From a virus: a stretch of DNA of 34,515 bases. Made by a program: the position numbers and the translations under genes. The notes beneath the pieces were generated by a model that saw only the letters and a program-made list of their open reading frames with translations, searched no databases and was not told the origin of the DNA. The number at the start of each line of letters is the position of its first letter. The first letter of the stretch is position 1. Below are positions 2,322 to 30,957 of this stretch, one piece after another. The stretch lies in IMG/VR virus record IMGVR_UViG_3300013936_000007, positions 1-34,515 of that record. One strand, written 5' to 3'.

Positions 2322-2703
2322 CGGTCATACCCTCCAGCGGGGAGTGGGCCCCGATCCGGTTGCCCACTCCCAGAAGTTTTTTGTCCAATTTGGACAAATA
2401 CAGCTCGCCCACCGCGCCGCTGCCCATGGTCCAGCTCTGGCTGTAGCCCATGGCGCTCATGCTGCCCTGGGTGGAACCCATCGGGAATTGGATATCGCCG
2501 CCGTCTCCTGCGCCCAGCTGCCGCCGGACCATCCGGCAGGACACCAAGCGTTTTGCATCTGCACTGGCGGCCTGGTTGTAGGCGTCAATGATGATCGCGG
2601 CCTCCTGGAGCAGTGCCTCAGCGCGGGTCTGCTCCTCCGACGTCAGGACGCGGAATCCGTCCTCGACGTCGTAGGCGGTGGCGTATGTCAGATCAGATGC
2701 CAT
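2308..2703 (-). CDS. head-tail connector protein (gp6-like)
   Basis: Start refined to the ATG at 2703, just after the upstream stop at 2705. The N-terminus MASDLTYATAYDVEDGFRVLTSEEQTRAEALLQEA is typical of gp6-like connectors. Confidence 0.6.
   Translation of the reverse strand: MASDLTYATAYDVEDGFRVLTSEEQTRAEALLQEAAIIIDAYNQAASADAKRLVSCRMVRRQLGAGDGGDIQFPMGSTQGSMSAMGYSQSWTMGSGAVGELYLSKLDKKLLGVGNRIGAHSPLEGMTDAGD
2382..2396. repeat. dispersed palindrome copy 1: TGTCCAATTTGGACA (perfect; extends to 19 bp, TTTGTCCAATTTGGACAAA)
   Basis: Inside the connector gene; translated as L-S-K-L-D-K. Confidence 0.95.
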
Positions 2704-2704
2704 C

Positions 2705-2950
2705 TCATTCGCCCACTTCGCTTTCCGGCGCAGCGGTTTCCTGAGGCTGTGCGACCTCCTGGGGCTGTGCATCTTCCTGGGGCTGTGCGTCTTCCGATGC
2801 GTCTGCCTGTTTGCTGGGCTTGGCTTTTCCTGCCTTCGCCGTCTTTCCGGGGTGCTTGTGCCCCAACTTCAGGTATTCCTCCACCCGGCTATCATCGACC
2901 CACATCTCCGTGCCAGTCATGGCGTTAATCAACTTGGTCATATCGTTCAC
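2705..2950 (-). CDS. small acidic protein with Q-P-Q-E repeats (possible head decoration or unknown function)
   Basis: 81-aa ORF directly after the major capsid gene. The C-terminus reads EDAQPQEDAQPQEVAQPQE. Confidence 0.5.
   Translation of the reverse strand: MNDMTKLINAMTGTEMWVDDSRVEEYLKLGHKHPGKTAKAGKAKPSKQADASEDAQPQEDAQPQEVAQPQETAAPESEVGE
2741..2794. repeat. 3 x 18-bp tandem repeat (ctgRggctgtgcNNcYtc)
   Basis: ctgaggctgtgcgacctc / ctggggctgtgcatcttc / ctggggctgtgcgtcttc. It encodes the QPQE(D/V)A repeats. Confidence 0.85.
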
Positions 2951-2951
2951 C

Positions 2952-3845
2952 TCACGCCTTAGTCAGCCGGTTAAACACGCTGGTGTCGCAGCGGAAGCCG
3001 ACCTCGATCTCAGCGCGCACGGCAAACATGTTCTGCTGGAACAGGTTAATGGTGGTACTGCCGTCGGTCAGGGTGGCCTGATCGGAGATTGCCACCTGTA
3101 CACCCTCTACGGTGCCATAAACCGCCTGGGTCCAGTCACCGGCATAGCCAACGGTGGCAGGCACAGCCTCGACCTTGGGAGGGCCGTCACTGGCTGCTAC
3201 CGGGGCAATATACGCGCCCTTACTCTGCTTCGCCGGTGCACCCAGAATCATGGGGACAGCGCCTTCCGCCACACTGTTAATAAACAGCGGGCGCTTGTTG
3301 TTGTCGGTAGCGGTCAGCAGCAGGCTCTTACCCTTGGGCGAGAGAACCCAGCCGTTCAGGATACCGTCATGATCCGCAATGTCCGCATCCGCAGCCACCA
3401 GACCATTGTAGGTGTTGGTGCCGATCTCCTGGGCAGTGCAGTTCTTGAGGGTATCGAAGTTGGAACCGGGCACAGCAGTGTTGCCGAAAACGGTGCTGTC
3501 AAATGCCTTGCCCAGTGCTTTGGGAAGCCGCTGCACCAGCGCGTCATACAGCGCAGGGACATCCCGCTTGAACTGGTTGGAGAACGGCACAATGACCGCC
3601 AGCGTGTACGGGGTAATCACCTTGGTTGCAAGGCTGCCGCGCTTTACGGGCTTCTTGTCGGTCTCCCCCACCCACGCCGCTTCGGGGTCGCCGGTAATAA
3701 CGGGGATGGTCACACCCAGGCCCGGCAGCGTAATCTGACGCGCCAGAGACATGACGGCGGAATCCTCCTGGGTTTTCTGCAAGATCTCCGATGCCACCGC
3801 CGTGGGCAGGGAGATGGAGCTGGTTCTGTTCAAATCGATTGCCAT
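2952..3845 (-). CDS. major capsid protein
   Basis: 297-aa ORF after the scaffold gene, with RBS AGTGAGGA. Confidence 0.8.
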   Translation of the reverse strand: MAIDLNRTSSISLPTAVASEILQKTQEDSAVMSLARQITLPGLGVTIPVITGDPEAAWVGETDKKPVKRGSLATKVITPYTLAVIVPFSNQFKRDVPALYDALVQRLPKALGKAFDSTVFGNTAVPGSNFDTLKNCTAQEIGTNTYNGLVAADADIADHDGILNGWVLSPKGKSLLLTATDNNKRPLFINSVAEGAVPMILGAPAKQSKGAYIAPVAASDGPPKVEAVPATVGYAGDWTQAVYGTVEGVQVAISDQATLTDGSTTINLFQQNMFAVRAEIEVGFRCDTSVFNRLTKA

Positions 3846-3862
3846 AGCTTAATTCCTCACTT

Positions 3863-4357
3863 TCATTTCGTTGCCTGATTAAACCAATCCGCAAACTGGT
3901 CTCGTGTGCTGCCGGTCGGCTTGGCCTGAGGGTCGCCGCCATCCCGGATTACGGTTCCGCCGCTGACCGGCTTGGCATAGTCCAGGATCGCCTGGGCCTG
4001 AGCCTTGCAGCTGTCCTCATCCTCTCCATACAGCAGGCTTGCCGGCACGCCGGTTTCCTTACTGACCTTCTCCCGGATGCTCCGGAGGTTGTCGGCCTTG
4101 GTGTATGCATCCACCTGTGCCTGAAGCGCTGCAACTTTCTCCGTGGCCTTCTGGAGGTCGGTTTTGTCTGCCTCCTGAGCAGCGTCATACTTCGCAGCCT
4201 TCTCCTTGAGGGCTGCATAATCTGCGTACTGCTCCCGCTCCCGGCTCAGCCGATCCGTAACGATGGCGTTCAGTTCCGACTGGGTGAAAGTACGCTCCTG
4301 GGTTCCGGCCCCAGTGCCGCCGCTTGTGATTTCCTGCTTCACAGTTTCTTTTTCCAT
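3863..4357 (-). CDS. capsid scaffolding protein
   Basis: 164-aa charged, coiled-coil-like ORF (..SELNAIVTDRLSREREQYADYAALKEKAAKYD..) directly upstream of the capsid gene, with RBS AAAGGAGA. Confidence 0.75.
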   Translation of the reverse strand: MEKETVKQEITSGGTGAGTQERTFTQSELNAIVTDRLSREREQYADYAALKEKAAKYDAAQEADKTDLQKATEKVAALQAQVDAYTKADNLRSIREKVSKETGVPASLLYGEDEDSCKAQAQAILDYAKPVSGGTVIRDGGDPQAKPTGSTRDQFADWFNQATK

Positions 4358-4710: not shown

Positions 4711-4780
4711 GATCCCCCGAAGGGGACAGCGAAGCGAATCGAACCTCTGCTAATTTGGCGGGGGGGCGGTTCGCTTTTTT
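4711..4780 (+). ncRNA. candidate ~70-nt antisense small RNA
   Basis: Lies between the orphan promoter and a T6 run at 4775..4780 preceded by CGAACC...GGTTCG pairing. Contains a CCCC-CGAA-GGGG hairpin. It is antisense to the MuF-to-membrane-gene intergenic mRNA. Confidence 0.3.
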
Positions 4781-5972
4781 AATATCTTCTCACGGATGCC
4801 AGTTTCCCCTTGCTCAGCACAAGGATATCTACGTTCCCGTTCGTTTCGTACCATCCCATTCGTTTATCCACCACAGACCAGAGCTTTTCCTCGGAGAATT
4901 CCAGGTCTCCAAGATCGAGGATAATGCCTCCGGGGTTCGCTTGAATTTGCGCGAATCCATGGCGCACAGCGGAGTTCGCAGCCTTTTCGCTGGAGATGGT
5001 TTTGAGGTCCCATAGTTTTTCATTCCACAGGTAATCCGGCGTTTTTACCTTATCTTCGTTGGCTTCCCGCAGCAGCGTGACGTCTCCACCCAGGTTATCA
5101 TGCAGCCACTGTGCAATCTTGACTTCCTCCGGGTGGGTGCCTTCTTGATATCCATCTCCCAAAACGATGGATCCACTTCCAGGCTTCGCGGCCTTTATGT
5201 ACTCAGCCGTAACGCTTCCGCGCGTAGCCCGAAGCGTAATCGTCTTCGCGCCGCTGGCTTCCAGGGCCTTTCTGGCGTGATAGGCTTCCCGCTGTTGGGC
5301 GTTCACCAGCTCCTTGTTCTCCTCCCGCTGCGCCCGGCGCATGGAGTTGATTTTCTCGCTGGGTGTGCTGCCCTCAGCGTTTTCGTACATCCGGAGGTAC
5401 TTGTCCGGATCATACCCGGCCACATTCGTTCGAGACGAAAATCGGATCGCATAGTTGCACTTGCAGTGGGCGTGAATGTGCTGGGCGTGGCCGTTTTTAA
5501 TGGCCTTTTTGCTGGCCCGCTGCCAGCCCCGACTTGCCAGGGTCAGGCAAAAGGCACATCCCAGGCCGCCGGGGATCCAGGCGAATTCCGCCCCGTCCCG
5601 CAGCGCGTTTTTCAGGATGGTGTCCGCACCGGCCTGCTTCACCAGGCGGCTGGTGGTGCCGGAGATCTGCGGTGGACTGCTAAGTGTGCTGTAAATGGCC
5701 TTTGCCACCTCTGCCATACTGGGCGGCTGGGCAGGCTCTGCCGGGCTGACGGTCACGCCCTCCGCCGCTGCCAGCTCATCGTACATCTGGGCTGCCAGTT
5801 CCGCGCTACCTTCGCCGTATTTGGTCACCAGGGCATTGGCGTAGACGATCAGGCCCTCGGTGTCCTCCGTTCCGTACTTGGCAATATACTGTGCCATGGC
5901 GTCCCCGGCGCGTTTGTCCAATTTGGACAGCCGCTGGACGTAATTACTCCAGTCCCGCTCCGAGATTGTCAT
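4779..5972 (-). CDS. MuF/SPP1 gp7-like head morphogenesis protein with C-terminal PD-(D/E)xK nuclease-like toxin domain
   Basis: Located after the portal gene. The central Cys/His cluster GCAFC...HAHCKC is typical of MuF-like minor capsid proteins. The C-terminal ~140 aa carry E..(n)..TPDYLWNEKLWDLKT, matching the PD...(D/E)xK pattern. Confidence 0.65.
   Translation of the reverse strand: MTISERDWSNYVQRLSKLDKRAGDAMAQYIAKYGTEDTEGLIVYANALVTKYGEGSAELAAQMYDELAAAEGVTVSPAEPAQPPSMAEVAKAIYSTLSSPPQISGTTSRLVKQAGADTILKNALRDGAEFAWIPGGLGCAFCLTLASRGWQRASKKAIKNGHAQHIHAHCKCNYAIRFSSRTNVAGYDPDKYLRMYENAEGSTPSEKINSMRRAQREENKELVNAQQREAYHARKALEASGAKTITLRATRGSVTAEYIKAAKPGSGSIVLGDGYQEGTHPEEVKIAQWLHDNLGGDVTLLREANEDKVKTPDYLWNEKLWDLKTISSEKAANSAVRHGFAQIQANPGGIILDLGDLEFSEEKLWSVVDKRMGWYETNGNVDILVLSKGKLASVRRY
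5915..5929. repeat. dispersed palindrome copy 2: TGTCCAATTTGGACA (perfect)
   Basis: Inside the MuF-like gene; translated as L-S-K-L-D-K. Confidence 0.95.
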
Positions 5973-10023: not shown

Positions 10024-10467
10024 CTATAGGACATTCAAGGACATGATTTCCCGCAGCTGCCGCAGTGCCTCCCCGTGGAGCCGAGTCACATGACGATAGC
10101 TATAGCCCAGCTCCACCGCTGTCTGTTCCCAACTGTGCAGTAAAATATACCGCTGCACCAGCACGTTATGCTCCGCCCCCTCCGGTAGTTTTGCAATCAG
10201 TTCCCGGGCTTCGTCCTTGGCAGCGATCAGCTGACCAATGCGCCGTGCGATTCTGTCCTTGCCGTCAGCAACCTGGATTGCCAGTGCCTCCACGCTGCCC
10301 CTTCCGCCGGAGGACTGTACAATGGGTTTCTCGTAGTCAAAACTCTGGAGGGAGCTAAGACTTTCCTCCAGCTGGGCCTGTTCCTGCTGGAGAGCTTTGA
10401 TCTCCTGGTCGATGTGCAGTGTACGCCGCAGAATCTCCCTTGGGTCTTTCTTATCTACGTTGTTCAT
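10024..10467 (-). CDS. late-gene transcriptional regulator (sigma-70 region-4-like, RinA/ArpU-type)
   Basis: 147 aa with a C-terminal HTH, SWEQTAVELGYSYRHVTRLHGEALRQL. Positioned just before the HNH/terminase genes, with RBS GGGAGGTAG. Confidence 0.55.
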   Translation of the reverse strand: MNNVDKKDPREILRRTLHIDQEIKALQQEQAQLEESLSSLQSFDYEKPIVQSSGGRGSVEALAIQVADGKDRIARRIGQLIAAKDEARELIAKLPEGAEHNVLVQRYILLHSWEQTAVELGYSYRHVTRLHGEALRQLREIMSLNVL

Positions 10468-10473
10468 AAGTTA

Positions 10474-11235
10474 CTACCTCCCCCCAGAATTAAAATGCGG
10501 CCCGTATAACTGGCCCGGTTTGGGCAGCCAGTATTTGATGAATGCGAACTCGCCCCACTCGTTTCGTGTACCATCCCGCTCAATGGTCACGGCTCCAGCC
10601 GGTGCCTCCAGAGTCACCTCATCGGGCACATCAATGGTCTCGACTTCCGGACGTTTCAGTCCCCGGCATGGGGTCCAGGTTCGTTCCCCCGGACGGGGTT
10701 TGCCATGATCCCGTGGCTCATGGGTCATATAGGTTGCCTTGTCCGTCACAGCCTGATCGTCGTTCTGCCACTCTATATAAATATTAGACCCATATGTCCA
10801 CAGGGCCCGGATGGTGTCAAAATCATCCTTACCGCCGTCGGCAGCGGACAGGACCATATGATGATGCAGCCGGAGACTGCCATCGTCCTGCACCTGCTGG
10901 GTACAATATATATATAGTAGCTGCTTGCCTTTGAGCTTCCATGCAGCGCGCAGTTTCCGAATGTACTTCCGCATGACTGCACCGGCGGCTTTGCGATCCT
11001 CAGGGAGGTGGGCATCATCATATGTCAGTGTCACCCACCAAAAGCCGCCAGGGAAATTCAGCGCAATCAGCATCTCCAATTTGTCCGTGGATTTCGAGAG
11101 ATTAAATCTTGCCTGTGCCTCCGTGCTGATCTGGCGTCTCGGCCCGCGGGAACGTGGCTCCGGCTGCCGGGAGGGCGCAGTGTACACGACACTGCGCACC
11201 AGCCGACCAGCTCTCATCGTCTTGAGCTTCTTCAT
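10474..11235 (-). CDS. HUH-superfamily rolling-circle Rep-like protein
   Basis: Motif I-like WWVTLTYDD, HUH-like LHHHMVL and a downstream Tyr region (KATYMTHE). The ATG at 11235 overlaps the upstream stop (ATGA). Confidence 0.55.
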   Translation of the reverse strand: MKKLKTMRAGRLVRSVVYTAPSRQPEPRSRGPRRQISTEAQARFNLSKSTDKLEMLIALNFPGGFWWVTLTYDDAHLPEDRKAAGAVMRKYIRKLRAAWKLKGKQLLYIYCTQQVQDDGSLRLHHHMVLSAADGGKDDFDTIRALWTYGSNIYIEWQNDDQAVTDKATYMTHEPRDHGKPRPGERTWTPCRGLKRPEVETIDVPDEVTLEAPAGAVTIERDGTRNEWGEFAFIKYWLPKPGQLYGPHFNSGGR

Positions 11236-11802: not shown

Positions 11803-12996
11803 TCATTCCTCCGGTACCGGCATCCAGCCGCCCACAAGCTCCTGAATGGCCGTCGCGCCATCCTTGCGCATCAGCCATGCATCTCCGTCCCAGTACAGCA
11901 CACGATACTTGCATGAGTTGTCGACCTTACAGGTGTAATACCCATCCTTCGGCGGCTCCCCGGTCTGCCAGACGCTTTCCGCGTCCGCATCTCTCGCTGC
12001 CGCCAGTTTTCGGATTGCCAGCAGGGCCAGATAGTCATACACCTGGGAGTAGCTGATGGGCATTGTCCGATCACTGGCACTTCCGAAGGATATACCATTT
12101 GACATTCCTTCGACGCCGCGGGAGCTACAATAATAATAGCGAAATGCCTGTTTCAGCAGGGCAACAGCCTCTTTTTTGCATCCGGCGGTGCGGATCCTGC
12201 CGCAAAGCATAGGAGCTGCACCGTCCATTTTGGACAAAACTCCATCCGTTTCCTTCCGGATCGCCTCATACTCAGCATCTACGTCCTTTTGGTACACTTT
12301 ATCATTCAAGCTCAGCTGCCGCACGGTTTCTTTCTGCTCCGCTTCCGACTGTCTCGCCAGCTGATAGGCTTCCGAGGCGTTCAGCTCACCGGCTGCCACC
12401 TTCTCCATGGCTTCCGGTACCAGATTCTCGTTGACGGTATGCATCCGGCTGACCTCGTTCCGGCTGACGCCCATGGAATCGGCAATGTACTGGCTCAGCC
12501 CGCTGGGCAGCTTCCGTCCCTGGGCTTTCATCGCCAGCAGCGTCTCCCGCATAGCCTTCTCCTGCTGGAGCTTGTCTGCATAGCTCAGTTCACGGGCGGT
12601 GGCGTTGGCAGTCAGCAGGGCAAATTCCTCGTCCAGCGTGTCCAATTTGGACATAATGATGGAGGGAATTTTGTCAAACTCCATTCCGTGTGCTTCATCC
12701 CGCAGCAGCTGATACGCTGCCAGTCTCCGGTGCCCGGAAACCAGCCGGTAGCCGCGATCCTCTGCCGCAACCACCCGCACCGGATCCAGAAGGCCCACAA
12801 TGCTGATGCTCTCCGCAAGGTTCCGGATCCCGGCGATCTCGTAGAAGTTTTTGTCGTTTGCTTTGATGGCGTCCAGCGGGATCAGCCGGATCCGCTCCGC
12901 CTGGGGCTGTGCAGCCTCCGAGGGGCCGTGGATGGCAGCTGTGATGTCAAATGCCACTTGGAGCCACCTCCCATCCCGTGCTGTCCAGCGTTCCAT
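11803..12996 (-). CDS. parB: ParB-like partition protein with extra C-terminal domain
   Basis: The N-terminal ParB/Srx box LIPLDAIKAN...LLDPVRVV...YRLVSGHRRLAAYQLL includes the GxRR arginine patch. The gene lies directly downstream of parA. Confidence 0.8.
   Translation of the reverse strand: MERWTARDGRWLQVAFDITAAIHGPSEAAQPQAERIRLIPLDAIKANDKNFYEIAGIRNLAESISIVGLLDPVRVVAAEDRGYRLVSGHRRLAAYQLLRDEAHGMEFDKIPSIIMSKLDTLDEEFALLTANATARELSYADKLQQEKAMRETLLAMKAQGRKLPSGLSQYIADSMGVSRNEVSRMHTVNENLVPEAMEKVAAGELNASEAYQLARQSEAEQKETVRQLSLNDKVYQKDVDAEYEAIRKETDGVLSKMDGAAPMLCGRIRTAGCKKEAVALLKQAFRYYYCSSRGVEGMSNGISFGSASDRTMPISYSQVYDYLALLAIRKLAAARDADAESVWQTGEPPKDGYYTCKVDNSCKYRVLYWDGDAWLMRKDGATAIQELVGGWMPVPEE
12222..12236. 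repeat. dispersed palindrome copy 3: CGTCCATTTTGGACA
   Basis: Inside parB; translated as L-S-K-M-D-G. Confidence 0.9.
12639..12653. repeat. dispersed palindrome copy 4: TGTCCAATTTGGACA (perfect)
   Basis: Inside parB; translated as M-S-K-L-D-T. Confidence 0.95.
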
Positions 12997-13792
12997 CAAT
13001 GGTCACGCTCAAAAACTGGGCCACAAAATCCCGGTAATCCCGTCCGGCGCTGCTGTACCGGCTGTACTCGCCCAGCGCCTGACCGTAGTAGGTACTTTCG
13101 TCCACCTTGTCGCTCCGGCGGATCATGGCCGGGTAGAGCAGGACGTTTTCGGGGAGCGCATCCTCCAGGACAACCAGTCCCTGCTTGCATGCCTCCGAGT
13201 TGTGCCACATAGTAACCAGCACCGAGGGCAGCACCTCCCGCTCCGACGTCGATGCAATGATCTCGATCTGCTCCAGAATAAACTGGGTGGCCCTATATCC
13301 GAAGTAATCCACCTTGATGGGGATAATCACATCGTCGCTGCAATAGATGGCAGCCGCCGAGGGGCCGCTGAATGCAGGCGGGCAGTCAATCACCACGAAA
13401 TCGTACGGCCTGTCCGTCTCGCTGATGGCAGCAATAAAATCGCTGAGCCGTTTGGTGCAGTCGTCCGCGCTGGTCAGCCCCAGCACGAGCATCTGGCTGC
13501 AACTGGGCACCAGATCGAGCCCGGAATACCGGGTAGGGTAGATCATGTTTTCCGGGTACGCTTCCGCGCCGGTCAGCAGGTCATAGGCCCCCGCAATATT
13601 ATCCAGCTCCCAGTGGTCGCCCATAGGCGTGGGCGTGCCCAGCAGTGCTGTCAGGTCTGCCTGGGGATCCAGGTCAATGGCGAGCACGTGCATGCCGTAC
13701 TCGCTGGCGAGGATCTGGGCCATGTTGGCAGCAGTGATGGTTTTGCCCACGCCGCCTTTACTGTTCATAATACTAATTACCTTTGTCTTCAT
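12947..13792 (-). CDS. parA: ParA/Soj-type partition ATPase
   Basis: Deviant Walker A NSKGGVGKT, then LAIDLDPQ and VVIDCPP. Start chosen at the ATG at 13792. Confidence 0.9.
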   Translation of the reverse strand: MKTKVISIMNSKGGVGKTITAANMAQILASEYGMHVLAIDLDPQADLTALLGTPTPMGDHWELDNIAGAYDLLTGAEAYPENMIYPTRYSGLDLVPSCSQMLVLGLTSADDCTKRLSDFIAAISETDRPYDFVVIDCPPAFSGPSAAAIYCSDDVIIPIKVDYFGYRATQFILEQIEIIASTSEREVLPSVLVTMWHNSEACKQGLVVLEDALPENVLLYPAMIRRSDKVDESTYYGQALGEYSRYSSAGRDYRDFVAQFLSVTIDGTLDSTGWEVAPSGI

Positions 13793-15107
13793 TGTCGCAT
13801 TTAGTCCCTTCCATATTGATTTCTTGCTGCTCAAACGGCACGGGGGTGCTGTCCGGCAGCGGTTTGTAGACGTTCGGCACCGGCGGAGTCGATTTTGTGG
13901 GGATCGGCTCGAACCTCTGCGTCGCGCCGTACCAATTCAGCTCCAGCTGACCGGTTCGGCCCTGCTTGTTCTTGGCGATCTTAAGCTGGCGATGCCCGTT
14001 AAAATCCCCTTTGCTGGCGAGATACAGCAGCATAATGCTGTCGGCGTCCTGCTCGATCTGACCGGATTCCCGGAGGTCGGACATCCCGATTTCCTCGCTC
14101 TTTTTGTCGGCCTTAAATTCACGGCTGACCTGGCTCAAAGCGTGGACGAGGATTTTGTTGCGCTGGGCCAGCGTATGGATCCGCATGGAGATCTTTGCGA
14201 CCTCCTGCGTCCGGTCCCGTGCGTCGCAAGAGATCAGCTGGAGGTAGTCGATAAAAATCACGTCATACCGGTGTGCGACGGCGTGATGAAAAATTTCATC
14301 CACCGTCCACCCGTGAGCGCTCTGAATCCATAGCTTATGATTTGCCAGCTTTTTGCTGGCGGAAGCGATCCGGCTATAGTCAAATTTGTCGAGGGTCTGC
14401 TTGTTTGTCAGGGCGTCCATACTGACGCCGGACGACGCTGCAAGCAGCCGCTCATATAGCTGATCGTCGTCAGCCTCCAGCGTGTAGTAGCCCACTCGGT
14501 AGTCCACCGACTGGTTATATGCAATCTGCAAAGCCAGTGCGGTTTTGCCTCTTCCGGGGGCCGCTCCAATGACGTTCATGCCGCCGGGGCGGAGATGGAC
14601 CCGGCCGTCCAGCTCTGGGATCCCGGTTAAGAGATACCGCTCGCCGGTCTTGCAACGGTCGTAAAATCGCATGGTCAAATCCATCATGCTGCTCTCGTTC
14701 TGACGTCCATTTTGGACACAAAGCTCATTGGCCTTTTGGATCGACTGCTGCATCTCGTTGAGGTTATCCGCCCTGGCCCCCTCCGACAGCAGCTCCCGCA
14801 GCCTTGCCATCCGGCTGCGCTCCTTGACGAGGGTTATGTACTGCCCCAGCATGGCGGTGGATGGTGTCAGCTCCACAAGCTGGCTGAGGTAGTCCCGGTA
14901 TTCCGGTCCCAGTCTGGCAGCCACCAGCACCGGATCCGGGTTTTGACCACCGGCGAAGATCTTGGAGATCACCTCATAGGCCGCCAGTGCAGCCCCGGAG
15001 AAGTCCTCCTTGCTGGTGTTGCTCAGCAGTTCCGCCGCAAGGCTGGGATCTACAAGGACGCAGCCGATGGCGGCGTTCTGACTTTCCAACCACTCGCTGT
15101 TTACCAT
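13773..15107 (-). CDS. dnaB: replicative DNA helicase (DnaB family)
   Basis: 444 aa with the N-terminal DnaB domain motif AAIGCVL, Walker A GAAPGRGKT, and IFIDYLQLI. Confidence 0.9.
   Translation of the reverse strand: MVNSEWLESQNAAIGCVLVDPSLAAELLSNTSKEDFSGAALAAYEVISKIFAGGQNPDPVLVAARLGPEYRDYLSQLVELTPSTAMLGQYITLVKERSRMARLRELLSEGARADNLNEMQQSIQKANELCVQNGRQNESSMMDLTMRFYDRCKTGERYLLTGIPELDGRVHLRPGGMNVIGAAPGRGKTALALQIAYNQSVDYRVGYYTLEADDDQLYERLLAASSGVSMDALTNKQTLDKFDYSRIASASKKLANHKLWIQSAHGWTVDEIFHHAVAHRYDVIFIDYLQLISCDARDRTQEVAKISMRIHTLAQRNKILVHALSQVSREFKADKKSEEIGMSDLRESGQIEQDADSIMLLYLASKGDFNGHRQLKIAKNKQGRTGQLELNWYGATQRFEPIPTKSTPPVPNVYKPLPDSTPVPFEQQEINMEGTKCDNEDKGN
14704..14718. repeat. dispersed palindrome copy 5: CGTCCATTTTGGACA
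   Basis: Inside dnaB, in a different reading frame (C-V-Q-N-G-R). Confidence 0.9.
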
Positions 15108-19780: not shown

Positions 19781-19813
19781 AACGCCCCGCGTCCAATTTG
19801 GACACGGGGCGTT
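19781..19813. terminator. bidirectional hairpin terminator between convergent genes, with a copy of the dispersed palindrome in its loop
   Basis: AACGCCCCG-CGTCCAATTTGGACA-CGGGGCGTT. Confidence 0.55.
19790..19804. repeat. dispersed palindrome copy 6: CGTCCAATTTGGACA
   Basis: Intergenic, forming the loop and inner stem of the terminator hairpin. Confidence 0.9.
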
Positions 19814-20526: not shown

Positions 20527-20534
20527 TTTATGCT

Positions 20535-20549
20535 TGTCCAATTTGGACA
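20535..20549. repeat. dispersed palindrome copy 7: TGTCCAATTTGGACA (perfect)
   Basis: Intergenic, 35 bp upstream of the hicAB -35 box. Confidence 0.95.
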
Positions 20550-22468: not shown

Positions 22469-22479
22469 ATCAATGTTTC

Positions 22480-22529
22480 TGGTGACCCGCCGGGGAATCG
22501 AACCCCGGACACCCTGCTTAAAAGGCAGG
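22480..22529 (-). other. attP core candidate: 3-prime 50 nt of a tRNA-Lys(UUU), from the anticodon arm to CCA, with no D-arm or 5-prime acceptor
   Basis: The minus strand reads CCTGC-CTTTTAA-GCAGG GTGTC CGGGG-TTCGATT-CCCCG GCGGGTC A CCA. The sequence upstream of it does not fold into a D-arm or acceptor stem. Confidence 0.8.
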
Positions 22530-24020: not shown

Positions 24021-24398
24021 TTACTTGTCCTCCTTATCGTCTTCGGTGGTACTCAACCCCAGCACTGCCCGCAGCTTCTTCGGGGCCAACTGGGGATTTG
24101 CTTTGCACACATTTTCAACCACGCTTCCGGCCTCCATGAGCGTGATATAAGCGCTGATACACTGGTACACTGGGATGGAGATACCCAGTTCTAAGTAATG
24201 CTGTCCGACGTTGAGCACGACGCCTAGTGCCACGCACAGAAGCAGGCTGCACTTGTGCAGCAGCCCCTCGCGCATGATCTTGGACTTCCACGCGTGCTGC
24301 ATAACAGCAACAATGGTGCCGCTCAAAAAATCCAGCACCATCAGGCAAAATACAATGCCGAAAATGACGCCGTCCGTTTTGGTCATAATTGTGATCAT
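24021..24398 (-). CDS. holin
   Basis: Start refined to the ATG at 24398, with RBS AAGGAGG at 8-nt spacing. It has three hydrophobic segments and a charged C-terminus (TTEDDKEDK), and lies upstream of the lysin. Confidence 0.75.
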   Translation of the reverse strand: MITIMTKTDGVIFGIVFCLMVLDFLSGTIVAVMQHAWKSKIMREGLLHKCSLLLCVALGVVLNVGQHYLELGISIPVYQCISAYITLMEAGSVVENVCKANPQLAPKKLRAVLGLSTTEDDKEDK

Positions 24399-24832
24399 TA
24401 ATATGCCCTCCTTACTGTTTCCCATGCCCCTGCATATTCGGTGGGGCTGTATACCGTGTCCATTTTGGACAAATATAGCGCGCCGTCAGTGTAGACCATG
24501 TATTCTCCGGCGTGGTACATGTCGTGTGCTCCAGTCGGCTGTACCCACGGTCGTGCCGTCTCCGGCGTAGTCCCGTGCAGCGGCCTATTAAATGTATACC
24601 ATGCGGAGTTCCCGGGCTTAATATCCGGGTATACGGCATTATCATACGCCGCATAACACTCCCACACCTGTCCATTTGCGCAGTAAACATCTCCGACGGC
24701 ATGTTCACCGGCGCTCCAGTCCGGGATAAGTGCGCTGATCCGCAACCGATCATTATCTCCGGTCACGCTGGTAACTGCAATCATAGTGGCGTCGCGGATC
24801 GCCTGGGCCTGAGCCACAAGATCATCTCTCAT
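24398..24832 (-). CDS. tail-module protein with two CBM5/12-like aromatic repeats (tentative)
   Basis: WSAGEHAVGDVYCANGQVWECYAAYD...PGNSAWY and WVQPTGAHDMYHAGEYMVYTDGALYLS...AGAWE. Confidence 0.45.
   Translation of the reverse strand: MRDDLVAQAQAIRDATMIAVTSVTGDNDRLRISALIPDWSAGEHAVGDVYCANGQVWECYAAYDNAVYPDIKPGNSAWYTFNRPLHGTTPETARPWVQPTGAHDMYHAGEYMVYTDGALYLSKMDTVYSPTEYAGAWETVRRAY
24457..24471. repeat. dispersed palindrome copy 8: TGTCCATTTTGGACA
   Basis: At the 3-prime end of the CBM-like gene, about 60 bp before the holin start; translated as L-S-K-M-D-T. Confidence 0.9.
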
Positions 24833-24962
24833 CGCTGTTTTCCTCCTCCGTTTTCACGCCCAAAACATTGAGCGCCTCGGCCATCTGGGCACGTTCCGCT
24901 GCCTCAGTGGCGGCTTCGGCATTCGTCTGGGCGCGGTTCCGCACATATTCCATAAGCGTCAT
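24822..24962 (-). CDS. 46-aa XkdX-like small ORF (tentative)
   Basis: Translated by hand as MTLMEYVRNRAQTNAEAATEAAERAQMAEALNVLGVKTEEENSDER. RBS GGAGGTGG. ATGA overlap with the upstream stop. Confidence 0.4.
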   Translation of the reverse strand: MTLMEYVRNRAQTNAEAATEAAERAQMAEALNVLGVKTEEENSDER

Positions 24963-25909
24963 TCGCCATCCACCTCCACAATTACAGCGGGCTCGCCGCA
25001 TACGGCTCTACCTCCACTTTTGGCATAGATCTTAACTCCCAGCTGCCATTTGTCGGTTTCCTTGGTCTCATTCGGCAAATCCACCGCAACACCGTTCTGG
25101 CACTCGACCCATGCAGGGTTGTCGTCGCCTGCGTTGTTTGATAAGTAGATTTGACTTTCCGTAGCATTCGTGATCTCAACCTCGACTTTGGCTCTCTTAA
25201 GTCTGGTATCAGTCTCGCCGCAAATCACGGCGTACTTCAACTCTCGGTACAGATGTGTCACGTCAGGTAGGATATAGATTGTGTCCTCCCCAAGGTCGGA
25301 CACCATTGTGGCATTTGCCACCTTAAAAGCGGGGCGCGGGCAGTAACCGGCGACGGACGCGCCGTCGCTGCTGAGACCGCCGTTGAAGTAGACGAAGCGC
25401 ATCCGCTCGGACGAGCCCGCAGACCGCAGCCACCAGTAGACCGCACTGCCAGCAGAATTATAGGCAATTCTGGCTGTATTGTCGTTCGTGGTGTTGTCCC
25501 GGTGAGTCTTGAGCGCAGATAGAATGCTGTCACCCTCTGCACCACCAGCTGCGATAACCTCGCTCTCGCTGAGTAGAAATGCTTGCCGTGCAATTTCGGC
25601 CACATCGGTAGCATCATAGGGTTTAACCTTGATCTGTGTAGGAATAATGCAAGCCTGCATTGGTGCATCAAAATAAGAGAGATACCCGCCGTCAGTATTA
25701 TTGAGCCACGCGTCCATCTCACTGTCGATGTAGGCAGCTACATTCGTGGGGTTGATTCTCCGTCCGGCCAACGTCTCAGCTCGAAGCAGCACTACGCCGT
25801 CGGAATCCTTACGGATTGGCCAATATTTTACGGTTGTGGTCACGCCGTTGACGGTTTCCTCGTACCACAGTTCCTCCGAGAGATCAATCGTTTCAATCGC
25901 TCTTGCCAA
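24959..25909 (-). CDS. DGR target (variable) protein, putative receptor-binding protein
   Basis: TTG start at 25909, 9 nt after AAAGGAG. Contains the VR. The FLLSESEV...YWWLRSAGSS...CPRPAF pattern resembles lectin-fold-type DGR variable regions. Confidence 0.85.
   Translation of the reverse strand: MARAIETIDLSEELWYEETVNGVTTTVKYWPIRKDSDGVVLLRAETLAGRRINPTNVAAYIDSEMDAWLNNTDGGYLSYFDAPMQACIIPTQIKVKPYDATDVAEIARQAFLLSESEVIAAGGAEGDSILSALKTHRDNTTNDNTARIAYNSAGSAVYWWLRSAGSSERMRFVYFNGGLSSDGASVAGYCPRPAFKVANATMVSDLGEDTIYILPDVTHLYRELKYAVICGETDTRLKRAKVEVEITNATESQIYLSNNAGDDNPAWVECQNGVAVDLPNETKETDKWQLGVKIYAKSGGRAVCGEPAVIVEVDGE
25308..25321 (-). other. hairpin GTGGC-AAAT-GCCAC 7 nt downstream of the VR
   Basis: 5-bp stem and 4-nt loop. 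A second inverted repeat, GTGTCC-N11-GGACAC, is at 25281..25303. Confidence 0.4.
25329..25452 (-). repeat. DGR variable repeat (VR)
   Basis: 124-bp match to 27021..27144 at a constant offset of 1692. There are 19 mismatches, and 18 are at TR adenines on the coding strand. Confidence 0.9.
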
Positions 25910-26957
25910 TTATTTCAACTCCTTTCATTGTTGTTCTCGTTCGATACCCTGCTTTTTTCAAAAGCAGGGTAAAATGTCTATCCATCTCGATTGCTACATT
26001 TCGGCACCCGGCACGCAGAACTCGTTGTCTCCAGCCTTGATACCTCAGCTGTACTTGTTCCGGAGTCAAATTCCCATTCGCCAGCTCACGCACGACCATT
26101 TTCAGCTCACGTTTCTTTGCCTTTTTCTTGCCATTTTGTAACCTCACAAGGGATATTCCGCCATCGGTCAAAATGTACGTAAAGCCAAGATAGTCCACGC
26201 GCCCGCGCTGGATCGTCGTCTTTGGGTTCAGCTCCAGCCCGATCTCCGCAAGGTGCTTTTCGATAACTCCCAGTAAGTGCTCCAGCTCCTCTCGGGTCGG
26301 TGCAATCACGTAGAAATCATCCATATGGCGTCCGTATAGTTGGTAGCCGTAGTCCTCGGTTATCAGCTGATCCAGCGTCTCTAGATACAGGTTCCCATAG
26401 CATTGGCTCTGCTGTAGCCCTAGAGGCATTCCGACAGGCGAATCATTATATTGGATATACGCCCTGCTGATCCGCAGAATATCCGGGTCTGTGATAACCT
26501 CCTCGGCCAGCCGAACCAGACGCTCCCGTGAGACGGAAGCGAAATAAGAATGAATGTCGCCTTTGAGAATCCACGGAGTTTCATGGCTTGCGTGCCAGTA
26601 ATCGCGCAGCAGCTTTGTAAGTCTTGCAGTACCGTATTCGGTGCCCCGCCCGATCAAACACGCGGAGATACCATCGCCGAGACGTGAAGCCACAGCTGGG
26701 TAAATCGTGTTGTCGCACAGTGCGTGCATGATGATCTTGTCGCGCACGGTTGGCACCTGCGCGATTCTCGGTTTGGGGACGTCGATGCGAATCAAGCCCA
26801 TAGGCAGCGGCTTAAAATCTGGGGATGCAAGCTGCTGCCGAATTTTGTAGATGTGATCATCGAGATAGTATTCGTATCGCTGGTACCTGTCCAGCGCAGT
26901 TTTCCCACGCCTGACCTCACGCCAGGCGTTTTCTATTTGTGCATAGGTCGGTATCAT
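25893..26957 (-). CDS. DGR reverse transcriptase
   Basis: 354 aa with LGLQQSQ (the [LIV]GxxxSQ motif characteristic of DGR RTs) and YGRHMDDFYV (YxDD box). Confidence 0.92.
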   Translation of the reverse strand: MIPTYAQIENAWREVRRGKTALDRYQRYEYYLDDHIYKIRQQLASPDFKPLPMGLIRIDVPKPRIAQVPTVRDKIIMHALCDNTIYPAVASRLGDGISACLIGRGTEYGTARLTKLLRDYWHASHETPWILKGDIHSYFASVSRERLVRLAEEVITDPDILRISRAYIQYNDSPVGMPLGLQQSQCYGNLYLETLDQLITEDYGYQLYGRHMDDFYVIAPTREELEHLLGVIEKHLAEIGLELNPKTTIQRGRVDYLGFTYILTDGGISLVRLQNGKKKAKKRELKMVVRELANGNLTPEQVQLRYQGWRQRVLRAGCRNVAIEMDRHFTLLLKKAGYRTRTTMKGVEIIGKSD

Positions 26958-27020
26958 ATATACCTCTTTTTAAGGGGCAGCTTCCTTTTCACGGGCTTCG
27001 TCATCTAAGTTTCCGTCAGA

Positions 27021-27144
27021 GCGGGGCGCGGGCAGTTTCCGGTGTTGGACGCGTTGTTGCTGTTGAGATTGCCGTTGGAGTTGACGTAGCGCATCTGCTC
27101 GGACGAGCCCGCAGACCGCAGCCACCAGTTGACCGCACTTTTAG
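27021..27144 (-). repeat. DGR template repeat (TR)
   Basis: Intergenic between avd and the RT. Read in the target frame it gives the Asn-rich AVNWWLRSAGSSEQMRYVNSNGNLNSNNASNTGNCPRPA. Confidence 0.9.
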
Positions 27145-27158
27145 GCTGCCCCTGTGTC

Positions 27159-27539
27159 TTATCGTTTTGCGTCGGCTTGCGCCCACGCATAGATTTTCCA
27201 GTACAGCGAGACAATTAATTCTTGCCATCGGGCACGCTGTTTCTCGCTGATATAACCCTTTTCATACAGGTTTCTCGCTTGGTGTTTCAACACAACCAAC
27301 TTTCGTAAGGCCTCTTGCTGATGCTCCACTCGGGCAGTTTTAGATGTCCTTAGATCGGTCTCGTTTGCCAGGATAACAGATTCCTGCACTGCGCAAGCAG
27401 CTAGTATGATTCTGTCAGCGAGACTTCGGTGTAGCCGCTTGGGAAGGCGTGGCTTGGGAGACTCCCTGTCGCACATGTCCAGTGTTAGAAGCAGGAGATC
27501 ATCCGCCATATTGCAGATCGCAAACTCGCCCTGAATCAA
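27159..27539 (-). CDS. avd: DGR accessory variability determinant (Avd-like four-helix-bundle protein)
   Basis: About 126 aa, helical and basic, immediately upstream of the TR. The TTG at 27539 overlaps the fibre gene stop (TTGA); an alternative ATG is at 27509. Confidence 0.7.
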   Translation of the reverse strand: MIQGEFAICNMADDLLLLTLDMCDRESPKPRLPKRLHRSLADRIILAACAVQESVILANETDLRTSKTARVEHQQEALRKLVVLKHQARNLYEKGYISEKQRARWQELIVSLYWKIYAWAQADAKR

Positions 27540-28513
27540 GAGACGACCACCCGGGAGTATTTATCCACAGCACCAGAGGTGACGGTTATGGCGTCATGCG
27601 CGAAATCTGCGACAAAAACATTGACGGCATTGAGATCGGTGCCTCCGGGCATATCCGCAGAACCCCAAGCGGTAGGCTTGCCGTTGGAATCTACTGCGGT
27701 GATGACGGGGATCTGGCCGACGGTTGCACCGGCAATCTCCATTCCCGCTCCGCTGGGACCGACATCGCCCTTGAGCGCAAGCAGCTGCCACTCATCGTCA
27801 ATTCCGGGGACGGCCCCGATTGTTGGCACTGTACCGGCGTATACGTAGCTGCTTCCGTCGTAGCTGACCGCATCCATGCGGCTATACTGGGCCGTAGAAC
27901 TGTATGCCCCATGCCAGTTAACGGATGTTCCATCAAACTCGCCGGACGCTTTGGCCTGGGCTAGGACGGCGTCGGTGGCGCTCTGAAGCCCGTCTCGGGT
28001 AATGTAATCCCCTTTGGGCTGCTTGCCATCGAACAGGGGCTGTAACGCATCCTGGACTTCCTCCCAGGCGCTGTCCACGGCGGTGGCTACATCGTCGGCG
28101 GTTGCAGCACCCACGTCTGTTGCACTAAGCTCGACGTCTCCCTGTTTGCCATTGACAGAGGTTACGCTTCCCTTGACTCCGTCCTGTTCCAGCGTCTCGA
28201 TGCGCTTTTCCAGCTGCCCCCACGTCTTGATTTCGGTGGGGGTATAGGCGTATCCATCGGGTCGCGGGCGGGCATGTACCTCAATCTTCGCCTCGTCCAG
28301 CGTGTGATCGGGCTTGTACGTCCACAGCCGGATGGTGTCGGTTGTCCACATTAGTTCCGGCGGGATCTCTACCTGGCCGTCCTTGGCGGCCACAGGCTTA
28401 TTGGTGGGCCAATACCTAAAATGTACTTCCGTCACGTCCGCCGGGACGCTGATGGTGATATCCGCATCCCACTGGTATACATGGTCCTTGCCGTTCGAGA
28501 GTTTGATTTCCAT
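27536..28513 (-). CDS. tail fibre protein
   Basis: Start refined to the ATG at 28513, with RBS AAAGGAGTG. SVNGKQGDVELSATDVGA is a fibre-type motif. Confidence 0.7.
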   Translation of the reverse strand: MEIKLSNGKDHVYQWDADITISVPADVTEVHFRYWPTNKPVAAKDGQVEIPPELMWTTDTIRLWTYKPDHTLDEAKIEVHARPRPDGYAYTPTEIKTWGQLEKRIETLEQDGVKGSVTSVNGKQGDVELSATDVGAATADDVATAVDSAWEEVQDALQPLFDGKQPKGDYITRDGLQSATDAVLAQAKASGEFDGTSVNWHGAYSSTAQYSRMDAVSYDGSSYVYAGTVPTIGAVPGIDDEWQLLALKGDVGPSGAGMEIAGATVGQIPVITAVDSNGKPTAWGSADMPGGTDLNAVNVFVADFAHDAITVTSGAVDKYSRVVVS

Positions 28514-28527
28514 AGCTTTCACTCCTT

Positions 28528-29772
28528 TCACGCCGTGCGCAGCAGCTTCGGGACCCACAGATCAGATCCGCTGTACGCCGATCCAGCCGGCGATGCTGAA
28601 ATATAAAAATTGCAATAAAAAGACATTGGTTCCGAGATGGAAAACGTCGCGCCGTAGCCCTTCTCCCACACATGATCCTGGGTCTGGGTGACCGTCGTGG
28701 GGGCGGAGGTGTACTTCGTGGAGGTGTATCCGGTCACCAACGACGTAATAGACCGTCCGTCACTGGGATACAATCGGATGCCCCAATAGGAGTAGTCCAC
28801 CCGGGCACGGCGATCTTGATACGCCGGGGTTCCGGACAGATGATAGGTGCCCGCAGGCAGATAAAGGGGATAATTGGACGACACCAGCGGGAGGACGGTG
28901 GCGGCGGTGGCCCCTGAACAAGCGGTGGTTACGCCGTCCTCCGAGGCCGTGGCCGTAACCCCGGAGGCGTAGGTTTTCCTGTCTCCGAAGATCCACGGAT
29001 AGGCCAGATAGTTGTAATTCGGGTCGAATGTGTACGTCTGCTGTGGAATTTTTTCGTAGTCGGGACGGGCGAAAAAGACGATATCCGCGTTGCGGTTGGC
29101 GTAATTGGTACGCACCACCGTATTGGGAATGTCGGTTACATTAAAATATTGGTCAATGTTGGTTGATACAATCGACACGTGAGAAATCGACAGGAACCGG
29201 CTGTTTTGTTTGGTGGAGTGGAAAATTAAATCCCCAGGTTTCCGCAAAGATGCGTCCGTAAAGGCCCGTCCGGCGGCCCAATAATAGGCAGCCAGATCGG
29301 CGGCGTAGCGCACCATCCCGCCCAGGGTCTGGCTGGATCGGATGTGGTCGTCCGCCCAGGTGTAAGTGGTATTCGTACTTAAATTCGATGCATTGTAAGT
29401 AGCATTTGCGCTTGTGTTAACATAGGGACTTTTTTGGTACGGAATGCCGCGCATCACCAGGTGGATATACGTGGAGCAGTCGATGAGCCCCTGCCCAGAC
29501 GCATTGTTCAGCGGCGCGCCGTCCAGGAACGTTGCGCCGCCGGAATAGACGAACTTCCGGCCCGAGGCCCGGGCGATCCAGTAGCTTTTGGCCACGTCCA
29601 CGGCCTCCAAAGCCCTTGGCTCGCAATAGGTTAAGGCTCCGTCGGCCCAGCGATAGCGCCTGAGCTGCTGGATTTTCGTTGCAAACTGCGAGGCCTGGAT
29701 CGGGTCGGAGGTACCGTTGCTGCCGCGAATGGCGAACGCAATGGCGGAGAGAAAATTTTCCTGCTTGCTCAT
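28528..29772 (-). CDS. tail protein with NlpC/P60-like cysteine peptidase domain
   Basis: GLIDCSTYIHLV is a candidate catalytic Cys context; PGDLIFH...ISHVSIV is a candidate His context. Confidence 0.55.
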   Translation of the reverse strand: MSKQENFLSAIAFAIRGSNGTSDPIQASQFATKIQQLRRYRWADGALTYCEPRALEAVDVAKSYWIARASGRKFVYSGGATFLDGAPLNNASGQGLIDCSTYIHLVMRGIPYQKSPYVNTSANATYNASNLSTNTTYTWADDHIRSSQTLGGMVRYAADLAAYYWAAGRAFTDASLRKPGDLIFHSTKQNSRFLSISHVSIVSTNIDQYFNVTDIPNTVVRTNYANRNADIVFFARPDYEKIPQQTYTFDPNYNYLAYPWIFGDRKTYASGVTATASEDGVTTACSGATAATVLPLVSSNYPLYLPAGTYHLSGTPAYQDRRARVDYSYWGIRLYPSDGRSITSLVTGYTSTKYTSAPTTVTQTQDHVWEKGYGATFSISEPMSFYCNFYISASPAGSAYSGSDLWVPKLLRTA

Positions 29773-30957
29773 TTAATAGCTCGCCTCCCATGTCGATACC
29801 ACTGCCGCCTGAATCTGCTGGGTCACATAGGCCTGCGTGGCATATCCGCTCAGCTCGGTTTTGGTCGATGCGCTGATACTGGCCGAAGCCCTCTGCACGT
29901 CCCGCTTGCTGGCGGTGCGGTCAACCCGCCGGTGGTAGCTGGCAATCATTTGGTTGTACGTCTGCTTTGCATACCCAATGTCGATGCTGTCATACTGTTC
30001 ACGCAGCACATCATACGCAGTCTTAGTAACCTTTGCCGTGGCTGACACGCCGATCTGCTCAAAATATACCGTCACCGTATCGCAGATTGCAATCTGCTCA
30101 ATCTGTCCAATTTTGACAAATTCCACGGTCAGGCTGACCGTGGGCACGCCAATCTGGTTTGATGTCATGTAGGCCTGAGCCCTTGTGCGCAGCTGATCCT
30201 CAGTCGGCGCATTCTCCCATTCCGTACTGAGGTCAAGCGGTAAAATGCGCGTCACCGGGTACGTGCCCTCAGCGTTGATCACTTTTTCGGTCAGCTGTAC
30301 CAGCGTGCCATCAGTGCCTCGCCAATAGGGGTATACGCCGGTGTAGACGTTGGCGCACGACTGCTCCTGCTTGAGATCGGTCAGGTTTTTCCCGTACCGG
30401 ATCACAACGCCCCGGTCCTTCCCCCGCTCCTTGTGGAGGGTAACAGAAAAACGGTTAAACTCATACTCGCCTCCATACACGTCCAGGATCCCGCCCTCGC
30501 TACCTCCCAGTAGGCTCCAGATGGCAGTAGGCACATCCACGGTCATGGTAGCAACGGTTTCCTTGTCCGTGCTAAAGGTGTACGGACAAGTCACCGCAGC
30601 ATTGGCCGTCAGCTTCTGCATGGCCTCAGCAGCGGACGTAGATGTAAATGGCTTAACGGGTATCCCCATCAAACCGTAGGCAATGTGACGCGCGTAGACG
30701 GTCACAGTGCCCGACATTGGCTTGGAGATATCATAGATGCGAAACGGCTGGTTGCGGCTCAGCTCGTCCGGCTTCGACAGAATGATCCGTTGGAGTGTGA
30801 TATCGCTGTAATGGATCCCCTGTACTGGGTACTCCATTTCCAACTCGTAAGAGCCGTTCCGCTCCTGGGTCACGACGCACGTAATGGCGTCAGTCAGGAT
30901 CCCGAGGCCGTTGTCCGAGTACGAAGTCTCCGTCTCCGCGTAAAGTATTGGCTTCAT
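29773..30957 (-). CDS. tail-associated protein (Tal / prophage tail endopeptidase-family N-terminal domain)
   Basis: Start refined to the ATG at 30957 (ATGA overlap with the Dit stop). The N-terminus MKPILYAETETSYSDNGLGILTDAI...ERNGSYELEMEYP is typical of Tal. Confidence 0.75.
   Translation of the reverse strand: MKPILYAETETSYSDNGLGILTDAITCVVTQERNGSYELEMEYPVQGIHYSDITLQRIILSKPDELSRNQPFRIYDISKPMSGTVTVYARHIAYGLMGIPVKPFTSTSAAEAMQKLTANAAVTCPYTFSTDKETVATMTVDVPTAIWSLLGGSEGGILDVYGGEYEFNRFSVTLHKERGKDRGVVIRYGKNLTDLKQEQSCANVYTGVYPYWRGTDGTLVQLTEKVINAEGTYPVTRILPLDLSTEWENAPTEDQLRTRAQAYMTSNQIGVPTVSLTVEFVKIGQIEQIAICDTVTVYFEQIGVSATAKVTKTAYDVLREQYDSIDIGYAKQTYNQMIASYHRRVDRTASKRDVQRASASISASTKTELSGYATQAYVTQQIQAAVVSTWEASY
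30104..30118. repeat. dispersed palindrome copy 9 (degenerate): TGTCCAATTTTGACA
   Basis: Inside the Tal gene, in the second frame (F-V-K-I-G-Q). Confidence 0.7.

Follow-up and report, generated by a model that had tools for sequence, protein, structure and literature searches.

IMG/VR record IMGVR_UViG_3300013936_000007 (positions 1 to 34,515; this whole stretch of 34,515 nucleotides is called the window below) is the genome of a temperate, siphovirus-like phage, over which nine copies of a 15-bp palindrome, TGTCCA-ATT-TGGACA, are dispersed. On the strength of comparisons with related phages, we consider it likely that these palindromes are the cognate parS-like sites of the phage's own divergent ParB, encoded next to a Walker-type ParA. 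The copies are not random, they are under selection at the level of DNA and they are linked to parB across deep clades. A previous, sequence-only reading of the window had proposed two roles for them, parS-like centromere sites or stoperator-like repressor sites; the comparisons below speak for the former.

A pattern search refound the four exact copies listed by that reading as well as the five with one or two mismatches (Table 1). That chance hardly accounts for them was also borne out, since 100 dinucleotide-preserving shuffles gave no exact copy; with up to three mismatches on both strands, 19 matches are observed against a mean of 0.98 in such shuffles. In 2000 codon-preserving shuffles, keeping every protein and the codon usage of each gene, perfect arms with a W-rich spacer occur 0.06 times on average (maximum 2) compared to 4 observed, and arms with at most one mismatch 1.36 times (maximum 5) compared to 7. 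The degenerate search adds three one-mismatch matches (10512, 21615 and 31580), which stay within the chance expectation of 1.76. The nine sites are spaced more evenly than by chance, with a maximum gap of 6.7 kb (P ~0.03).

Seven of the nine sites lie within genes. As first described, five coding copies are read as (L/M)SK(L/M)D, in the head-tail adaptor, the MuF-like protein, ParB (twice) and the product of ORF 24398-24832, and translations place the DnaB and Tal copies in another frame (V-Q-N-G and V-K-I-G). The whole proteome contains five (L/M)SK(L/M)D peptides, all of them encoded by the motif. Two copies are indeed intergenic, the one at 19790 at the apex of a hairpin and the one at 20535 by the hicAB promoter, this last being the only site of the nine near a promoter-like element. 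The promoter is of sigma-70 type and reads from 20500 to 20472 on the minus strand, with a perfect TTGACA-17-TATAAT. Base composition by codon position indicates that the minus strand carries nearly all genes, so that the motif on the sense strand is TGTCCA-AAT-TGGACA. All nine copies share a central T on the plus strand, as had been noticed, but the common orientation deduced from it does not hold in relatives (comparison loci are numbered L): the centre is flipped at the sites homologous to 12639 in L284, 19790 in L280 and 20535 in L282. Most of the window is T-rich on the plus strand (AT skew -0.1 to -0.2).

Table 1. Palindromic sites and other features of the window
Feature	Position	Strand	Match or sequence	Description
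Site 1	2382..2396		exact; minus/sense strand TGTCCAAATTGGACA	in head-tail adaptor gene 2308-2772, encodes LSKLD
Site 2	5915..5929		exact	in MuF-like gene 4779-5972, encodes LSKLDK
Site 3	12222..12236		2 mismatches; sense TGTCCAAAATGGACG	in parB, LSKMD at about residue 255
Site 4	12639..12653		exact	in parB, MSKLDT at about residue 115
Site 5	14704..14718		2 mismatches	in dnaB, other frame (V-Q-N-G)
Site 6	19790..19804		1 mismatch	intergenic, apex of probable hicAB terminator hairpin
Site 7	20535..20549		exact	intergenic, 35 bp upstream of the hicAB promoter -35 box
Site 8	24457..24471		perfect arms, TTT spacer	in ORF 24398-24832, encodes LSKMD
Site 9	30104..30118		1 mismatch, TGTCCAATTTTGACA	in distal tail/Tal-like gene, other frame (V-K-I-G)
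33-nt hairpin	19781..19813	-	AACGCCCCG + site 6 + CGGGGCGTT	between convergent 18646-19767 (+) and hicB
parB	11803..12996	-		divergent ParB-superfamily protein, GHRR box, putative helix-turn-helix region
parA	12947..13834	-		Walker-type ParA/MinD-class ATPase, directly upstream of parB
DnaD-like HTH_36 initiator	15101-15814
HUH Rep-like protein	10474-11253	-		Pfam REP_ORF2-G2P, PHROG 3584
XRE/CI-type repressor	18123-18581
Sigma-70 region-4-like protein	10024-10467
Tyrosine integrase gene	21293-22378	+
373-aa protein	18646-19767	+		faint BRCT match
DGR reverse transcriptase	25893-26957
DGR Avd-like four-helix protein	27159-27539
DGR template repeat	27013-27139
DGR variable repeat	25321-25447			inside gene 24959-25909

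The claim that the constraint acts on DNA is not only confirmed but strengthened, by the codon-preserving shuffles, by the identity of arms versus flanks and by paired changes in the arms. The family consensus is a 17-bp palindrome, G-TGYCCR-A-W-T-YGGRCA-C. In 93% of family copies, A occupies position 7 and T position 9, which fits a double-stranded dimer site better than a hairpin loop. The arms occur as TGTCCA/TGGACA, TGCCCG/CGGGCA, TGCCCA/TGGGCA or TGTCCG/CGGACA, plus hybrids, and a given genome is usually dominated by one variant. In the stretch coding for the homologous part of the ParB N-terminus, the palindrome GTG YCC RAW TYG GRC AC is maintained and the peptide varies (VSKLDT, VSNLDT, VPESGT, VPDSGT, VPNLGT, VSGSDT): Ser/Pro and Asp/Gly swap together because both arms change together. 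In the family, 83% of sites are coding (the DNA itself being 90% coding), and 80% of these coding sites share one frame.

Adaptor and MuF-like homologues devoid of the motif are also devoid of LSKLD. About 70 relatives of the adaptor have LSKLE, spelled with various codons; the adaptor of the window and of its two nearest relatives has LSKLD, spelled as the motif. Similarly, motif-less MuF-like homologues display RLSRLNQ versus RLSKLDK in the window, implying that three residues were replaced in the window lineage to make the site. From these alignments, it is most likely that the need to keep the sites changed amino acids of at least two virion-module proteins, the head-tail adaptor and the MuF-like protein.

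Every site within the DNA shared with the window is retained in eight close relatives, which have 64-90% identity in ParB or 93-94% in the capsid protein. In these, the arms are identical at 316 of 324 positions (97.5%) versus 87.2% for the flanks (Fisher p 4e-10), and among the eight arm differences, five are returns to the consensus. Sites 1 and 2 are both kept in L120, L121 and L280, site 3 in L279-L284, where its flanks are 75-93% identical, and site 5 in L279, L282, L283 and L284, while the arms of site 4 are identical at 12 of 12 positions in six relatives. The counterpart of site 6 is a perfect palindrome in L280, L282 and L283, as is that of site 9 in L120. Site 7 is kept in L280 and L282, and the homology of the window to L280, L282 and L283 is interrupted at this site (20535). 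The fetched relatives do not cover the region of site 8.

The link between the motif and parB emerges from retrievals made in opposite directions. Viral contigs scanned for the exact 15-mer yielded 119 loci; by a rough estimate, about 100 single hits are expected by chance, but many unrelated contigs hold two to five copies. Twenty of these loci encode ParB homologues with 25-38% identity (21 by profile search), 17 ParA, 12 DnaB and 18 Rep-like proteins. The ParB-module loci span 25 to 65% GC, with the motif mostly located at the parA/parB junction, either 26-35 bp upstream of parB or in parB codons 15-25. To remove the selection bias on the motif, 79 loci (1.21 Mb) were fetched by ParB protein similarity alone, among at least 242 ParB relatives in one viral collection. 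They contain TGYCCR-N3-YGGRCA 253 times where about 2 are expected, and in 73 of the 79 a copy lies at most 100 bp from the parB start. A second hot spot corresponds to the 3′ end of parB: about 29 of the loci L200-L278 display a fixed second site at about +1204 to +1216 from the parB start, so that parB is bracketed by two copies in many family members. A looser cluster is found 5-7 kb upstream of parB, in the region of the repressor and integrase genes.

Phages related by their capsid module served as controls. They were fetched via the major capsid protein and 80 out of 408 were kept. Those without a ParB homologue contain 0 symmetric and 5 degenerate copies in 1.16 Mb, and no copy was found in 313 kb of relatives with a DnaB homologue only nor in 55 kb of those with a Rep homologue only. 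The three loci with a ParB homologue hold 10 copies in 62 kb. Moreover, an independent ParB clade (12 loci, 72-100% mutual identity) carries exactly one copy per locus in the parA-parB spacer, always 26-28 bp upstream of parB (12/12). This co-occurrence over a wide range of GC, the position near the parB start and the absence of the motif from capsid relatives without ParB point to parS-like sites, in agreement with the first of the two roles initially proposed.

Two capsid relatives with a more distant ParB, L174 (3415, 4918) and L191 (3515, 4705, 19808), carry TGTCCAC-T-GTGGACA, where C/G replace A/T at positions 7 and 9, and their putative recognition helix reads SAGAAARLN versus SKSKLARLK. 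The joint change of site and helix is a possible specificity switch.

Two named phages belong to this picture. Flavonifractor phage Cormatin (L285, ON453905.1; host Flavonifractor plautii) contains four copies, at 15330, 21481, 23601 and 28506, of which one begins 49 nt inside the gene of its ParB homologue (WAK79880.1), and Clostridium phage Saumur (host Enterocloster clostridioformis) a one-mismatch copy 19 bp upstream of parB. Both are prophages predicted at chromosomal coordinates in OMM12 strains, and both were induced (PMC10197239). The Cormatin ParB homologue (27019-28569) is annotated as hypothetical protein only, and no integrase is annotated in this record. Another of the four Cormatin copies lies in the head-tail adaptor gene, like in the window.

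The window ParB matches PHROG 4715 (ParB-like partition protein, E 5e-36), and the ParB-family profile matches the Noc, ParB and Spo0J structures with E values from 1e-17 to 1e-11. G88, R90, R91 and A94 are invariant in the ParB alignment A1; the 14-sequence ParB alignment is highly divergent. A conserved segment, S-x-S-K-L-A-R-L-K-x-I-R, aligns with the region of Spo0J that follows the N-terminal domain. A search of viral contigs for relatives of the window ParB returned none. ParA is recognized by Pfam AAA_31 (E 6e-33), plus CbiA, and by PHROG 164 (ParA-like partition protein, E 2e-48), its start being likely the Met at about 13792. It is encoded directly upstream of ParB and ends within about 200 bp of it in 64 of 71 family loci. 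A palindromic cis site in or next to the par operon is also present, with two copies inside the window parB itself.

We infer that ParB is the binder, that its loading depends on CTP and that the system has a role in partition. A ParB dimer would read the symmetric half-sites TGTCCA and TGGACA via its putative helix-turn-helix, and would then be loaded on DNA to form a nucleoprotein complex around each site, like other GxRR-box ParB proteins. ParA would act on this complex, resulting in positioning or segregation of the phage genome copies; transcription might also be affected locally, for instance from the hicAB promoter. The ancestral copy would have stood at the parA/parB junction, in the spacer just upstream of parB or within its first ~25 codons. 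In the window lineage, copies would have multiplied and spread around the whole genome, new copies within genes arising from coding stretches that already resembled the motif, through synonymous and, in some cases, non-synonymous substitutions.

Several observations weigh against the attribution of the palindromes to a partition system. The window ParB barely clears the Pfam ParB_N cut-off (26.8 bits versus 26.3), and it scores 25 bits with NCBIfam parB_part (TIGR00180), below the cut-off of 58.45, with a match spanning profile positions 28-176 of 186; it is thus a divergent relative and not a curated member of the ParB/RepB/Spo0J family. In addition, the putative helix-turn-helix of ParB is near-identical across the arm-variant classes, no clean covariation between protein and site being observable, and the ranking of ParB residues by mutual information with arm variants mostly brings up columns that are variable and specific to clades. 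The explanation is either that positions 3 and 6, which vary only as T/C and A/G, are not discriminated or that another factor sets specificity. The ParB, ParA, DnaB, DnaD-like and Rep-like genes travel together in most loci; consequently, it takes the smaller control sets to tell them apart by association alone. Four motif-rich loci (L017, L019, L081 and L117) lack ParB in the fetched stretch, these being partial contigs. Finally, parAB is located in the replication/early operon, outside the lysogeny module, and with an integrase in the window and named prophages that are chromosomal, plasmid-type partition in lysogeny is not obvious.

This last point leads to another way in which ParB could use the same sites, which we regard as conceivable but clearly less probable than partition: ParB and its genome-wide sites would coat, fold or silence the phage genome, or organize its copies after infection or induction. 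Its role may then be KorB-like or condensin-loading instead of plasmid-type inheritance. The even spacing fits such a role, as do the intergenic copies capping terminator hairpins beside exchangeable cassettes and the presence of parAB in the early/replication operon of integrating phages. It would imply that selection for an even spread of sites was strong enough to rewrite residues of virion proteins.

Should ParB not be the binder, the candidates closest at hand are the replication proteins encoded nearby, the DnaD-like HTH_36 initiator or the HUH Rep-like protein, the palindromes being then origin or iteron-type sites; we judge this improbable. Rep homologues accompany 18 of the 119 loci fetched by the motif; of the 79 ParB loci, 56 contain a Rep homologue and 60 a DnaD-like gene. 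In L076, L050, L081 and L075, a copy precedes the Rep homologue by about 10-60 bp. Yet it is at the parA/parB junction that the site has its fixed position, not at the Rep or DnaD-like gene, and the capsid relatives with Rep but without ParB show no copy in their 55 kb. Copies are present in relatives with ParB where no Rep or DnaB homologue was detected, and in the L002-type clade the site accompanies ParA and ParB, the fetched flanks giving no match to Rep or DnaB. Nine nicking or initiation sites per genome would also be hard to square with a rolling-circle origin.

Even more doubtful are scattered operators, comparable to L5 stoperators, for an XRE/CI-type repressor or for the sigma-70 region-4-like protein, the second role that had been suggested at the start. 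One copy does lie upstream of the hicAB promoter, the upstream cluster of the ParB loci coincides with XRE and integrase homologues, and the central base is common to all nine window copies. However, the sites are symmetric and their centre flips between relatives, so orientation is not conserved, and most family sites are coding. They track ParB and not an XRE repressor: homologues of the window XRE proteins occur in only 26 of the 79 ParB loci, about 75 capsid relatives without a ParB homologue are also without the motif, and the positional anchor is parB.

There is little to recommend the motif as a hairpin in mRNA or ssDNA (terminator apex or processing site) in place of a duplex bound by a protein. 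Site 6 is the apex of a strong terminator-like hairpin, with a fold energy of -34.5 kcal/mol on the minus strand (z -6.5) and a stem kept in L280, which is probably an intrinsic terminator. Both intergenic copies of L282 likewise cap longer GC-rich hairpins, which have T-runs behind them. In three window copies a T is changed to C in such a way that the minus-strand RNA retains a G-U pair, and compensatory arm changes are equally expected of a hairpin. On the other hand, the motif alone is a 6-bp stem with a 3-nt loop, of about -8 kcal/mol in context, and at site 12639, 21 of 200 shuffles fold at least as well. The complementarity maintained between positions 7 and 9 (93%) would be superfluous in a loop, hybrids whose two arms differ are frequent, and the tie to the presence of parB is left unexplained. 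A hairpin role could be added at the two intergenic copies.

The idea that the motif is host-wide, reflects base composition or simply follows from a recurrent LSKLD peptide, and has no phage function, deserves next to no credence: although five copies encode the same pentapeptide and LSKLE is already found in the adaptor of relatives, the 4 observed copies compare with 0.06 under codon-preserving shuffling, two copies fall between genes and two are read in another frame, the motif occurs over 25-65% GC, and ParB-less capsid relatives, which from their major capsid protein identity probably infect similar hosts, hold no symmetric copy, this being the sole basis against a host-wide feature since host chromosomes themselves were not scanned.

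The preferred reading, parS-like sites for the phage ParB, finds its closest parallel in the chromosomal ParABS of Firmicutes, where Spo0J/ParB works with the 16-bp parS TGTTNCACGTGAAACA. There, Lin and Grossman reportedly described in 1998 about ten palindromic parS sites, most of them in genes and one inside spo0J. Both systems associate a ParB-superfamily protein having a GxRR box (and, in the window, a putative helix-turn-helix) with an adjoining Walker ParA, and both rely on some ten palindromic sites that are mostly in genes, including parB itself. In contrast with Firmicutes parS, the window site is unrelated in sequence, has an odd length (7+1+7 or 8+1+8) and is found around the whole genome instead of clustering near the origin; the protein falls below the curated parB_part cut-off and the replicon is a 34-kb temperate phage.

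Other phages and plasmids share part of these traits. N15 is a linear plasmid prophage without integrase; its SopAB system is said to use four dispersed centromere inverted repeats, some near promoters (work of Ravin and Lane in 1999 and of Grigoriev and Lobocka in 2001). Like N15, the window is a phage genome with a ParB-type protein and several palindromic sites in distant regions, but it has an integrase, its named relatives are predicted chromosomal prophages, its site and protein family are different, and its copies are more numerous and mostly in coding sequence. In the IncP plasmid RK2, KorB and its ParA partner IncC act with 12 dispersed copies of the 13-bp palindrome OB, and KorB combines partition with long-range gene silencing from operators located mostly at or near promoters. 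The association of a ParB-family protein, a ParA partner and dispersed palindromes is common to both, known in the window from its sequence, whereas only one of nine window sites is near a promoter and family sites are for the most part coding.

The RedRock-type actinobacteriophages, which Dedrick et al. reportedly showed in 2016 to carry parA, parB and cis sites beside the operon, lack integrases, and arrays of 8-bp repeats flank their parAB. They too are temperate phages with cis sites near parAB; the window differs by its single 15-17-bp palindromes, one embedded in parB and others dispersed. Stoperators of L5 and cluster A phages are asymmetric binding sites of the immunity repressor, which follow the direction of transcription and lie mostly between genes. 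These are also many copies of a short motif across a phage genome, but the window site is palindromic, only its central base being asymmetric and flipping between relatives, and sites of this type track ParB and are mostly coding. The features that distinguish the system described here are thus the site sequence and its odd length, the copy that parB carries within its 5′ end, the dispersal among structural genes in a 34-kb integrase-bearing genome and the breadth of the phage family. A literature search for the 15-mer and its core retrieved no papers, and keyword searching on dispersed phage parS nothing on the motif.

These results provide a site consensus, G-TGYCCR-AWT-YGGRCA-C, for a large and so far uncharacterized ParB family. 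The family occurs in temperate phages of gut Clostridia, including the inducible OMM12 prophages Cormatin and Saumur, and the motif offers a simple marker for finding the ParA/ParB module in metagenomes. They also show clearly how a DNA site can shape the sequence of proteins, since the parB peptide follows the palindrome and the MuF-like protein took three replacements. As the number of sites goes from one at the parA/parB junction to nine genome-wide, related phages lend themselves to comparing what the extra copies contribute to ParA and ParB in phages that also integrate.

The two intergenic copies of the window (19781-20549) bracket the hicAB cassette. In L282 (2800-3330), the same two positions are motif copies at the apices of GC-rich terminator-like hairpins, which bracket a different cassette, a small membrane protein in reverse orientation; the corresponding region of L280 is 2552-4094. 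Motif-capped hairpins may mark exchange points for accessory genes.

As for the genome itself, an exact 77-bp direct repeat at 1-77 and 34439-34515 indicates a circular or circularly permuted assembly with 34438 bp of unique sequence, the genome being of about 57% GC. The minus-strand gene order is DnaD-like initiator, DnaB, ParA, ParB, Rep-like HUH protein, sigma-70 region-4-like regulator, HNH, terminase, portal, MuF-like protein, scaffold, capsid, head-tail adaptor, tail genes, diversity-generating retroelement (DGR), holin and endolysin. The CI-type repressor, the hicAB pair and the tyrosine integrase lie on the other strand or in a low-GC block, the integrase and hicAB being named from translations and gene order and not from a family search. 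This block, at 17000-20500 (45-49% GC versus ~57% elsewhere), contains the CI-type repressor, the 373-aa protein with a faint BRCT match and hicAB, and looks like a separately acquired lysogeny/accessory module. An HUH Rep-like gene stands here in a dsDNA tailed phage, adjoining a DnaD-like initiator and DnaB; in the ParB loci with a Rep homologue, it is found about 2-7 kb downstream of parB. Scans of the window for tRNA and Rfam families gave no match.

Two metagenome bins (Oribacterium sp. and a Lachnospiraceae bacterium) allow a weak assignment of the host. The search for near-identical DNA in the phage collection found a 54-bp match only, just downstream of the integrase gene (22476-22529), with 92.6% identity to the otherwise unrelated gut phage contig MT836296; this stretch may be an attachment-site core. 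Lastly, a complete DGR occupies 24959-27539, with two 127-nt repeats that are 85% identical and whose mismatches fall at adenines of the template copy.

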